Below are positions 10,106 through 14,512 of a DNA stretch of 35,028 nt, one piece after another. Within the stretch, counting starts at the first letter, position 1, and every line of letters begins with the position of its first letter. A program made the translations under genes and the position numbers. The notes beneath the pieces are model-generated. The model searched no databases and was not told the origin of the DNA. It saw only the letters and a list, made by a program, of their open reading frames with translations. The stretch comes from a virus (lineage: Duplodnaviria; Caudoviricetes): the IMG/VR virus record IMGVR_UViG_3300035396_001120, positions 1-35,028 of that record; one strand, 5' to 3'.

Positions 10106-11428
10106 TTATTGCATCTTTTGCCCACTTAGCGGGTCAAACTTTACTTTTTCAGGTGATTTAAACTTGACTTCAGGAGCAGATTCCCATTCGTAAATAGTTC
10201 CCGCTTCTGCCTTCCATGAGATATGCCCATCATCAGAGACTGACTCTGCCCAAACATAATCTTCTTCGTGCATATTAGGGTATATTCGTTTGAGTTTATC
10301 CGACAAACTTTCTTCCGCCTTAGAACCCTCAGAGATAGGAGCTTGTCTCCTGCGAACAGGGGTCTCTTCTTTCGCTGGTTCATCTTGAGTAAGCGAGTGT
10401 CCTGTAGAATAAACTTTATTCTCATCTTTTTCTTCACTCTGTTTTTGTTTTTTGAATTCTTCTTTCTCAGGTTCTACAACTTCTTTTACCCATTTTTCAA
10501 AGTATTTATCTTCTCCAACTGCGTAAAAAAGTCTTTTAAGTTTTCCACCCAAATACTTGTGAATAGTTGAGTGTGGAGTAAACTGAGTAATTGGTTCAAG
10601 GTCTACAAGTTTATAGCCTCGTTCTTCCTCTGTTAGTCCACCTTCTCTCAGATAAGGTGTGTACTTTGCAATTCTTGGGTCTGCCATAGTAATTGAGTAC
10701 GGTTGTGTTTGCTGAGATCCTTTTGTTATTTGGATGTCATACCCAAAACAATCCAAAAGGTCATCCTCTTTTGCGATAGACGGGTATTTAGCAAGCATAG
10801 CCTCTACTTCACTATAAAAAGCTTTAAAAGAAACTCCGATTAGAAAACCATCTTTAGAGATAAGTTTAAACTTTTTCTCTTCTTTACAGTAGTCAAAAGA
10901 CCCTATTGGTTTTTCTCGTTTCTTATCATCTGATGCAAATTTGTTTGTAGGAAGACGATCTAAAGCATTCCAAACTAATAGTTCAGATGGGTACCACCCT
11001 TTATTCTCGATAGATTTTCCTTTGTACAAAAACGGCTCTTGATTATTGTGCTGTACCATATTGAAAAGGTCCGGTAACTTAGGTGCCCATTTAAAAGGGT
11101 ATTTTTTCTTACCATCATCTCCAACAGTTGCTTTATCCCAATCTCGCTCTCCCATGATAGTATTTGCTTTCCAAATAGGGTGATCTTTTCCTTCTTCTTT
11201 TGATGGGATAATCGGCTTTCGTCTTTTATCTTCATCATCAAAGATCTCGCACTGATAAATTCGTTTAAAAGACCCTACGAGCCTTACGATACGAAAATCA
11301 TTTGCATCTTCTAGTTTTAGGTTGATTTTTTCACCGAAGTCTTTGGGATCAAATGACCCGAAGCCGTTACTTGCGTTCTCTGCTTCACTTCTCTTTTTTT
11401 CTTCTTCCATTAGTTGTTTAATATTCAT
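10106..11428 (-). CDS. Putative single-stranded DNA-binding protein (T4 gp32-like OB fold)
   Basis: 'RIVRLVG', 'WNALDR', 'GYDIQITK...PYSI', 'DLEPI' resemble gp32-like SSBs. Charged linker. AAGGA SD. In the same operon as the DNA polymerase. Confidence 0.6.
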   Translation of the reverse strand: MNIKQLMEEEKKRSEAENASNGFGSFDPKDFGEKINLKLEDANDFRIVRLVGSFKRIYQCEIFDDEDKRRKPIIPSKEEGKDHPIWKANTIMGERDWDKATVGDDGKKKYPFKWAPKLPDLFNMVQHNNQEPFLYKGKSIENKGWYPSELLVWNALDRLPTNKFASDDKKREKPIGSFDYCKEEKKFKLISKDGFLIGVSFKAFYSEVEAMLAKYPSIAKEDDLLDCFGYDIQITKGSQQTQPYSITMADPRIAKYTPYLREGGLTEEERGYKLVDLEPITQFTPHSTIHKYLGGKLKRLFYAVGEDKYFEKWVKEVVEPEKEEFKKQKQSEEKDENKVYSTGHSLTQDEPAKEETPVRRRQAPISEGSKAEESLSDKLKRIYPNMHEEDYVWAESVSDDGHISWKAEAGTIYEWESAPEVKFKSPEKVKFDPLSGQKMQ

Positions 11429-11800: not shown

Positions 11801-14512
11801 TTATTTATCTTTAAAACCCCATACATTGGAAACCCCAACATCTGCTTTAATTGGGATACCGTTGTACTCGGGTCTTACTATTTCCGCAATACCTTTATAT
11901 ACGTCTTTATAATGTACTTCCTCCGGGGGAGACGCTATAATAAGAGAATCATGAACAGTTCCAGCTAAATAGCTTTTAGTTTTATTTTCTTTCATAAACT
12001 TACAAATTTCATTTGCAGTTTGGAAAAGAACATGACCCTCGAATCCTTGGACAGGACTATTAACAGAAATATTAAGTAGAGCTGCCATAGCGCCAGAATC
12101 ATCATCTTGTCTTTTATCCTTACCTCTAACAGGTGTTAAATATCTGCGCATTCCTTTGTATGTTTCAACAAAGCCCTGTTCTATTGCTACTTTCTTCTGT
12201 GAGTTTATATAAGCCATAATCCCTGGGTAAGAGGTGAAAAAAGACCTTCTGAAAGCAGTCGCCATAGCAACCCTTACGTCCCACACAGTTATATCTTGTT
12301 TATGAGCAACTACTTTTTTTATATCCTCATTCATGTACGTCTTGTACTCTGACCATAACTGGTCTTTATCCATTAGAAGAAGATCCTTCATATTGAAGTT
12401 TTTTTCATCTTTTGCAAAAGATAATGCAGCTAAACCAAAAAGGTAACCAAAATTTGTAGCTTTGGCAAGCTGTCGGAAACCTTTCAATATTCCGTATTCA
12501 GGGTCATCCTCATCTTCCGATTTATAAATTGCAATGGCTTCTTCAAACTCCATGTGTCTTATAGTTCTAGATAATAAAGCAATACCTAATCCCGTCATCA
12601 TATGGGCATCATCATTGGGAGATTGAAATAATTTTGTTAAGTTTTCGTCCCCCGATAGTATTGCCATAATACGCATTTGAAAACCAGAAAAGTCTAATTC
12701 TACAAGTTTCCACCCATCAGGCACAGAAAACTGTCTTCTAATATCATAAGAGTATTTACTATGTTTTGGAATTTGCTGTAAGTTTAAATCTATGCAGGAT
12801 ATTCTACCAGATTTCACATGTGCCAAGAGGTAGCTAGAAGTTATTCTTCCATTTACTACCGATTTCCATATTCCGTTGTGGTTCTCTTCTTGCCCTATAA
12901 AAGTATTTAAGAGATTTCTAATTTCCTTATATTTTTCTATGTGCTCTGCTACTTTATATCCTTGGTTTTTCCAAAAAAGTAGTGCGTCTTCCCCAACTTT
13001 ATACTGACCCTTTTTTCCCGCACCTTCTGGGGATTCGGGAAGTCCTAGTTGTTTAAGAGCAAACCCTAATTTCTCATCGCTGTCTATATCTTTGAACTCC
13101 GGTATCTTTTCCTTGAAGTCCTCTATTAATAAAGTTTTGTATTCTTCTAAAACTGGTTGATATTTTGCATTAAGCTCTCTGTTTGCTTCTTTGTTAAAAA
13201 TAAAAGTATTTCTTTCCATCATCAAAGTAGTTTCTGTAAATGGCATAGCAATATTAAGACACAGCTCTCTCATTTTTGGGTCTCTCATTACTAGTGGGTA
13301 AATAGCATCAAAGACCCATCCTAAAACAATCACATCCATAATGGCGTACTCTGCAAGCATTTCAAAAGGTATCTGCCCATAGTCCGTACACTTGTTTTCT
13401 TTTTTCCACTCTTCTAATGAGTCCTCATATCCTCCATATGGACTGTACCTATAAGCGAGAGCTTTTAATTTCGCCGTAAGATTAGAGTCTACACAGTAGT
13501 GAAAGGCAATCATCGTATCTAGAAAACAATCTATCTCCATGCCATTTATTCTTAAAACAGCAAGATCAAACTTTGCATTATGTATTATGTTTTTCTTGGA
13601 TTTAAAAAGTCTTGTAAATAAATGATTATACTTCTTATCGTACTTGAATAAATATCCCTCTTTTTTATCCAAGGAAACTTGAATTGTTATTAGTCTTGCT
13701 AATTCCGGCGTAACAGCATGTTTTTTATCTATACCACTTGTTTCCGTATCCACCATTAAAAATTCTACAGGGTTTTCTATTAGCGAGTTTATAACAGTTT
13801 CAATCTCCTCTTCTTTTACTATGGCTTTCCTAATTCGTGTTTGCTCATAAAAAATTCCTCTCTTATTAAACAACATCCCCTTCTCTAATTGCTCTTTTAC
13901 AAATTCAGTCTCAAACTTATTGAACACTATAGTCCTGGCACTTTTCTGTTTTACAAACTCCCCAGAATCTGCGTCCCAAGAGGAATTAACTCGATGACCG
14001 ATAAAATCTATCAAAGCTGGTAGGGGAAATATGAACGTCCTTACCTTATAAGAGTAAATATAACTAAGTTTACTGTTATTATGTATTGTATTAGTGAACT
14101 CATCTAATAATTTCTCTTTAGGTGTCTTTGGAACGAATGTATCGTTTGTAAAAGCATAAAGGGATCTTCCTATTGTGAATATAATTTTAGGCTTTACTTT
14201 TTCGATATGTTTTAAAGCGTGAAGTTGAAAACAGTGATTGAAAGTCGCAACTGAATCATTTACCTCGAAACCACTTGGTCTGCAACATAGACAATTTGCA
14301 AAATAAGAGTTTTTCATTGTAAAGCCTAGGTTATTTAAAAAATCAAAAAAGACCTGTAACCTACTCTCAGACTCTGGCATTTCAAATAAAAAAAGATAGT
14401 CTGGGTTATTACTTCCAAACCCCTCTGTATCATACTTATACTTCTCATCTGCTTTCTTTAAAATAGAACAGTGACATTTTACATTGTATCCAATATCTTC
14501 TAAAAATGACAT
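11801..14512 (-). CDS. polA: Family A DNA polymerase with N-terminal uracil-DNA glycosylase (family 4)-like domain and 3'-5' exonuclease; no 5'-3' exonuclease domain
   Basis: ExoI 'VDTET', ExoII 'HNAKFD', ExoIII 'YAIMD'; 'SGRISC..LNLQQIP'; motif A 'DFSGFQMR'; motif B 'RQLAKATNFGYLFG'; motif C 'VHDS'. N-terminal 'CHC...GFG..NPDYLFLFEMP...ANCLCCRP...C...KPKIIFTIG' is UDG-like. Confidence 0.95.
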   Translation of the reverse strand: MSFLEDIGYNVKCHCSILKKADEKYKYDTEGFGSNNPDYLFLFEMPESESRLQVFFDFLNNLGFTMKNSYFANCLCCRPSGFEVNDSVATFNHCFQLHALKHIEKVKPKIIFTIGRSLYAFTNDTFVPKTPKEKLLDEFTNTIHNNSKLSYIYSYKVRTFIFPLPALIDFIGHRVNSSWDADSGEFVKQKSARTIVFNKFETEFVKEQLEKGMLFNKRGIFYEQTRIRKAIVKEEEIETVINSLIENPVEFLMVDTETSGIDKKHAVTPELARLITIQVSLDKKEGYLFKYDKKYNHLFTRLFKSKKNIIHNAKFDLAVLRINGMEIDCFLDTMIAFHYCVDSNLTAKLKALAYRYSPYGGYEDSLEEWKKENKCTDYGQIPFEMLAEYAIMDVIVLGWVFDAIYPLVMRDPKMRELCLNIAMPFTETTLMMERNTFIFNKEANRELNAKYQPVLEEYKTLLIEDFKEKIPEFKDIDSDEKLGFALKQLGLPESPEGAGKKGQYKVGEDALLFWKNQGYKVAEHIEKYKEIRNLLNTFIGQEENHNGIWKSVVNGRITSSYLLAHVKSGRISCIDLNLQQIPKHSKYSYDIRRQFSVPDGWKLVELDFSGFQMRIMAILSGDENLTKLFQSPNDDAHMMTGLGIALLSRTIRHMEFEEAIAIYKSEDEDDPEYGILKGFRQLAKATNFGYLFGLAALSFAKDEKNFNMKDLLLMDKDQLWSEYKTYMNEDIKKVVAHKQDITVWDVRVAMATAFRRSFFTSYPGIMAYINSQKKVAIEQGFVETYKGMRRYLTPVRGKDKRQDDDSGAMAALLNISVNSPVQGFEGHVLFQTANEICKFMKENKTKSYLAGTVHDSLIIASPPEEVHYKDVYKGIAEIVRPEYNGIPIKADVGVSNVWGFKDK

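Follow-up and report, generated by a model that had tools for sequence, protein, structure and literature searches.

A family A DNA polymerase (PolA) of 903 aa, encoded on the minus strand at positions 11801–14512 of the window (the whole stretch of phage DNA analyzed here, 35,028 nucleotides), lacks the paired steric-gate Glu (E710) and Tyr (Y766) and has Gln (Q612) and Phe (F692) at these sites, together with a Glu (E825) in motif 6. The same three residues, written below as Q/F/E in the order E710 site, Y766 site and motif-6 site, recur across a clade of phage polymerases and in two other polymerase lineages. Judging from these alignments, we consider it probable that the substituted residues form a compensated pocket, for which ordinary dNTP selectivity is predicted.

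The polymerase and its active-site residues

The window is a 33% GC stretch of a contractile-tailed phage with genes for a baseplate, a tail fibre and a 5'-3' exonuclease; a record places the polymerase on a 190,870-base contig, 35 kb of which is covered by the reading given here. The ORF, which is likely the phage replicase, belongs to family A based on its match to PF00476 (E 1.8e-45) and the presence of D607, R680, K684 and D855. Its AlphaFold2 model (pLDDT 89.4, pTM 0.90, 78-row alignment) matched Klenow and Bst in Foldseek with TM scores of 0.82–0.87 by target, and KlenTaq was also matched. Klenow, Taq and Bst resemble the 903-aa enzyme in fold, in the catalytic Asp pair, in the Arg, Lys and Phe of motif B and in the Asn and Gln of motif 6, but identity is about 20%, a uracil-DNA-glycosylase (UDG)-like domain replaces the 5' nuclease, and Gln, Phe and Glu stand in place of E710, Y766 and the first Ala of QGTAAD, respectively.

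In E. coli Pol I, motif A reads DYSQIELR, with E710 as the steric gate in contact with Y766, and motif 6 contains QGTAAD. The E. coli residue numbers used here follow the first-pass annotation and the cited papers, except that of the counterpart of the motif-6 Glu, which by our own count we take to be A852. All four polymerase motifs were found on the DNA where that annotation had placed them, each on the minus strand. Motif A (DFSGFQMR, 12671–12694, aa 607–614) contains the catalytic D607 and Q612 (codon CAA, 12677–12679); motif B, the O-helix (RQLAKATNFGYLFG, 12434–12475, aa 680–693), contains R680, K684, F688 at the F762 site and F692 at the Y766 site (codon TTT, 12437–12439); motif 6 (NSPVQGFEGH, 12032–12061, aa 818–827) contains N818, Q822 and E825; and motif C (VHDS, 11945–11956) contains the catalytic D855. 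Alignment to KlenTaq placed Q612 onto the Glu of DYSQIELR and QGFEGH onto QGTAAD, and motif B aligned through its K..NF register, which puts F692 onto the Y766 site. E825 (codon GAG, 12038–12040) lies three residues past the conserved Gln, at a position held by Ala in Pol I and by Gly in T7-like enzymes. In the AlphaFold2 model it falls within helix 806–842, three residues after Q822, and we infer from the model that the two side chains may share one face of this helix. Sequencing error was ruled out by a second assembly (L220) that does not differ at any of 14,813 bases, and error or decay of the gene by the recurrence of the residue set in over 100 clusters (50% identity).

The 3'-5' proofreading exonuclease domain (13301–13819, minus strand; PF01612, aa 232–404) contains DTETSG, HNAKFD and YAIMD, in agreement with the initial description of intact catalytic Asps and proofreading motifs, and its catalytic residues D255, E257, D316, Y389 and D393 were invariant among 120 rows. 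Fold comparison identified the N-terminal region (13880–14488, minus strand; about aa 9–211) as a family 4 UDG-like domain, which aligned to the UDG of T. maritima (1l9g) with a VIA-align Z of 15.3 and an rmsd of 2.6 Å over 159 aligned positions; profile matches to three UDG structures had E-values of 0.02–0.05, with an hhalign probability of 83%. The domain retains Cys77 and Cys94 as well as an N-terminal Cys pair. However, catalytic motifs A and B are not conserved. Because a degenerate FEMPE stands in place of GEAPG and alignments of the domain showed no conserved His in the C-terminal UDG motif, it is likely inactive as judged from its residues.

Similar architectures have been described in UDG-fused phage PolAs (N4-like cluster 17, SPO1-like and SP15-like), which also have a family 4 UDG fold before the exonuclease and are 800–950 aa long, and the available text of these papers describes no Q/F/E set in them (PMC10201439, PMC13697223). 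The UDG-like domain studied here matched that of phiLo (9qhs) with a Z of 10.4. It resembles the N4-like enzymes, in which degenerate UDG motifs and an inactive UDG domain are described in the text available to us (PMC10201439), and differs from the SPO1-like and SP15-like enzymes, for which conserved catalytic UDG motifs A and B are a criterion. Judged by its length, the 903-aa enzyme does not have the large insertions of SP15.

Covariation in the phage clade and in other lineages

To the best 150 clusters (50% identity) from a profile search we added P0004–P0006, giving 153 rows, of which 21 were truncated or interrupted and were dropped, leaving 132 rows with all sites aligned. At the E710, Y766, Q849 and motif-6 sites, 119 of these read QFQE, six HYLE and three HYIE, with one each of QYQE, HFQE, HYQE and EYQS. 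Gln or His occupies the E710 site in 131 of the 132 relatives, and all 131 have the motif-6 Glu; the single E/Y row (P0184) has Ser at the motif-6 site and is sister to the rest of the clade (support 94/97). The Glu also showed no variation across 120 mostly full-length rows, in a clade that spans 25–45% identity. The first-pass annotation had pointed to a new Glu and a new His in motif 6, and only the Glu proved to be conserved: the position of the His (D854 site) varies among the relatives (V 60, I 13, L 12 and others), as does that of the Gly, and a role for either is not supported. QGF alone was found in canonical enzymes too (P0009, P0016), and R614 is kept in 142 of the 153 rows. Among 46 further loci, 33 were QFE and 11 were partial and consistent with it, the remaining two being a canonical outsider (E/F/A) and a misaligned sequence. 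The Q/F/E set is a signature of the clade.

Near-complete genomes carrying the clade polymerase are about 140–225 kb in size and belong to contractile-tailed phages. No cultured close relative was recovered among 50,697 phage records searched with two queries (best E 1e-23 to 1e-31, identity at most 27%), and the T7-like and Aquificae-like variants discussed below had best matches of at most 40% identity to phage records. A single-protein scan of viral contigs gave no match. A scan of GTDB recovered one Q/F/E clade-type polymerase (L217, CAYZJM010000088.1) on a 3.1-kb contig in a Woesearchaeota MAG, which is probably a viral fragment binned into that MAG and gives no basis for a host assignment. 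The clade polA gene is often interrupted or divided into two or three ORFs (L007, L024, L025, L026, L034 and G003), which suggests introns or inteins.

The same set was found in two other families. Of 81 T7-like PolA rows, three were Q/F/E, with 73 E/Y/G, three E/Y/A, one E/F/G and one incomplete, and none of the 81 had Gln at the E710 site without the motif-6 Glu. Two of the T7-like Q/F/E polymerases adjoin a T7-type primase-helicase, one of them (L061) also an RNA polymerase and endonuclease I. In an Aquificae-like family (n = 120), one member of which is named as from a Gemmataceae MAG, Q/F/E accounted for 95 rows, E/Y/G for 19 and H/Y/E for two; the others were one E/H/G, one E/F/G and two misaligned rows. 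The two Aquificae-like His variants have Leu in place of Q849, like the His variants of the phage clade, so that two unrelated lineages share a second coupled state (His gate, Tyr kept, Q849 replaced by Leu or Ile, motif-6 Glu) (P0143, P0145, P0166, P0167, P0182, P0185–P0187 and P0192 in the phage clade; P0306 and P0311 in the other). In a tree computed from 38 of the 79 rows after the four diagnostic columns had been masked, the phage clade, the T7-like and the Aquificae-like enzymes each formed their own supported branch, and an AU test on the same basis rejected a single clade of swapped enzymes (p 1.4e-46). A blind scan by motif A alone (ADYSQxQxR) recovered 17 viral loci, partly near-copies and outside the tree, which fall into four groups below 40% identity; Phe was present in 17 of 17, and Glu in 16 of 16 that reach motif 6. 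These comparisons show at least three origins of the Q/F/E set, and further origins are likely. The initial proposal of coordinated change as opposed to decay is borne out by the coupling in 131 of 132 clade rows.

Recurrence of this kind could also reflect a repeatedly selected change in specificity, in which the Q/F/E pocket and its His/Tyr/Leu/Glu twin serve a replicase that is still of high fidelity and takes up nucleotides with 2' substitutions or modified bases, or withstands chain-terminating analogues of host defence; we regard this as possible but improbable.

In all 120 rows of Saccharibacteria Pol I (P0021 family), the motif-6 Glu occurs with both E710 and Y766 retained. These enzymes are cellular and have a 5' nuclease; all 120 rows read QGTEAD in motif 6, and Phe precedes the gate Glu (DYSQFELR). 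Across the alignments, then, Gln or His at the gate appears to need the motif-6 Glu, while the Glu does not need Gln. A relocated gate, as first suggested, fits the covariation; however, the Saccharibacteria enzymes argue against a plain one-for-one swap, and because they combine the Glu with E710 and Y766, the motif-6 Glu need not occupy the space of E710.

The Saccharibacteria state is also compatible with permissive drift, in which the motif-6 Glu stabilizes motif A or the Q helix by an indirect route (for instance via the motif A Arg) and E710 then decays to Gln or His at a modest cost in efficiency or fidelity. The conservation of R614 noted above and the two end states (Q/F and H/Y/L) that share the same Glu point the same way. 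We nevertheless consider drift unlikely: the Glu is invariant across the divergent phage clade and was gained in every Gln or His lineage seen, both of which point to a direct role in catalysis.

DpoZ, nucleotide genes and modified DNA

Phe at the Y766 site had been named in the first-pass annotation as a trait of some DpoZ enzymes, and both the phiVC8 and the Wayne sequences confirm it. The proposed link to DpoZ did not hold, however. The motif A Glu is retained in both DpoZ types (DMASFEVR in phiVC8, DLANAELR in Wayne), which have Ala or Leu at the motif-6 site and fall outside the phage clade in the tree, so that the 903-aa enzyme, which has lost the motif A Glu, groups with neither the phiVC8-like nor the Wayne-like enzymes. 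DpoZ is also without a UDG domain and comes with PurZ, and it shares with the 903-aa enzyme only the Phe. In the available text of two papers this Phe is called unique to DpoZ (PMC8599892, PMC10201439), which the sequences of the Q/F/E enzymes contradict.

No purZ gene is present within the 35-kb window, and none of the 40 records searched (39 without G012, which is not a swap carrier) contained PurZ. Matches to PF00709 occurred in 2 of 27 and 0 of 13 records, and both were rejected as PurZ since they have GDEGKG (Asp) where the PurZ of phiVC8 and Wayne has Ser. Given the retained E710 and missing motif-6 Glu of DpoZ, together with the absence of PurZ from the records searched, a DpoZ or Z-DNA identity was rejected. 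The Asp-type, PurA-like genes (L064:4863-8548 in G001 and L079:10282-13417 in G007) adjoin two conserved unknown genes, and the G001 copy has a large insertion resembling an intein.

Nucleotide genes were surveyed in nine relative records by comparing 150 of 166 shared clusters with PHROGs and most of the others with Pfam, the 1,046 singletons being left aside. Ribonucleotide reductase was found in all nine, dUTPase in five, ThyX in three, DNA methyltransferases in five, Que-pathway genes in four and a stand-alone UDG in two (G006 and G008); several core genes of the clade had no family assignment. Subsets of QueE, FolE, QueD and QueC with a Vut_1 transporter (G003, G006, G007 and G016; for example L105:9446-12236) suggest 7-deazaguanine metabolism in some clade members. 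Two records (L297:1270-3554 in G005 and L296:1333-3651 in G010) contain a thymidylate-synthase-like gene with an HD phosphohydrolase (dATPase-like profile match) and a phrog_1485 protein, and the G005 cassette also has a kinase-like ORF. This arrangement resembles a hydroxymethyluracil (modified-pyrimidine) pathway. Genes similar to NeuB, a cytidylyltransferase and a family 29 glycosyltransferase in G005, G006 and G008 (L114:13501-19951, L136:6403-7248) form a sialic-acid-type sugar pathway in these phages. Near the polymerase, a 440-aa ORF (10106–11428, minus strand; cluster 1) was present in 10 of 10 records compared and could not be credibly assigned to any Pfam or PHROG family; from where it lies, it may encode a replisome protein, for example one that binds single-strand DNA. 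The PolA cluster is the sole recognized polymerase in the 140–225 kb clade genomes. For four small phages with the swap (G029, G031, G032 and G035) and a T7-like fragment, the scan covered 212 of 250 ORFs, and among these no modification pathway was found in the three near-complete phages; nucleotide-related matches were methyltransferases and ThyX, alongside a putative mannosyltransferase in G029 and a radical SAM protein in G035.

These surveys bear on whether a modified nucleotide of these phages (5-hydroxymethyl-dUTP, dUTP, dZTP or an unknown base) has shaped the pocket, which we consider quite unlikely. Such an adaptation would agree with the thymidylate-synthase-like cassettes of G005 and G010, with the Tyr-to-Phe change shared with DpoZ and with the Q/F/E enzyme L273, whose nearest match among 15 references is phiVC8 DpoZ (29.7%); the genomic evidence for the phage itself comes from 35 kb of its 190,870-base contig. 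UDG-PolA fusions are, in addition, described as typical of modified-T phages in the available text of PMC10201439 and PMC13697223. However, no PurZ was found, including in the complete genome of L273, PF00303 occurred in 2 of 20 records, both times within the thymidylate-synthase-like cassette, and in none of the nine near-complete ones, with ThyX in 7 of 20, and the stand-alone UDG argues against U-DNA in G006 and G008. The residue set is constant while the modification genes vary, which argues against a base-specific adaptation. A tie to one nucleotide-modification pathway, as first envisaged, was therefore not recovered, PurZ being absent in the records searched and the relatives' modification genes being patchy.

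The proposed pocket

The compensated pocket is favoured by the coupling within the clade, the T7-like and Aquificae-like counts, the AU test and the blind scan, together with published data on Klenow E710Q and Y766F, the water network of KlenTaq and the gene context. According to the available text of PMC3715850, Y766 of Klenow hydrogen-bonds E710, and E710Q cripples closing with dNTP (K2 0.52 versus 6.1; Kd2 230 versus 0.83 µM), while Y766F is close to wild type. In KlenTaq, Asn750, Gln754 and Glu615 are described as part of a common water-mediated minor-groove network in the text available (PMC7155079), which places motif 6 next to motif A.

In the compensated pocket, the motif-6 Glu would restore the carboxylate lost with E710, so that ordinary DNA would be copied and ribonucleotides would still be rejected. 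Gln612 would retain the bulk that blocks the 2'-OH, and Phe692 would follow, as a Tyr hydroxyl without its hydrogen-bond acceptor becomes dispensable. Glu825, one helical turn past Gln822, would provide the minor-groove network around the incoming nucleotide with an acceptor or a charge. The Saccharibacteria state suggests that the motif-6 Glu came first and was tolerated next to E710, which would then have been free to change to Gln or His.

The gate could instead be relaxed, with ribo- or 2'-modified nucleotides tolerated, or the enzyme could be a mutator, with phages that benefit from or repair the resulting changes; this we hold to be very unlikely. F611, which precedes the gate residue, may be cited in its favour, I709F being a mutator. 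Klenow E710Q is likewise described as a mutator, but the available text of the same study reports that it does not favour closing with rUTP (0.056 versus 0.083, compared with 0.16 for E710A) (PMC3715850). Proofreading is intact and RNase HII was found in 0 of 20 records, both of which speak against a relaxed gate, and a leaky replicase is hard to reconcile with genomes of 140–225 kb in which only the PolA cluster was recognized.

In the literature searched we came across no account of a natural E710Q or motif-6 Glu, and the available text of PMC10201439, PMC8599892, PMC13697223, PMC3715850, PMC7155079, PMC3241644, PMC7824862 and PMC9324360 contains none, although the logos in Figure 3 of PMC10201439 and its supplements may bear on this. 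The portions of PMC7824862 and of the POLG literature available to us likewise say nothing on the motif-6 site. The system is not the undescribed one that had been proposed, but a variant active site within PolA.

To our knowledge, E710 has been regarded as an invariant residue that alone acts as the sugar gate in family A polymerases. The sequences reported here indicate that it was replaced several times in nature with the same second-site Glu, though E710Q alone cripples Klenow, and the Q/F/E set may permit the steric role of E710 to be separated from its charge or hydrogen-bond role. The set distinguishes a large clade of uncultured UDG-PolA phages, absent from the 19 published clusters as far as the available text of that classification goes, and Phe at the Y766 site is no marker of Z-DNA phages. 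Q/F/E enzymes may offer a natural alternative scaffold for a pocket engineered to accept modified nucleotides, and in the phages themselves the set probably reflects a second way in which nature builds the nucleotide-checking pocket, not modification of the DNA.
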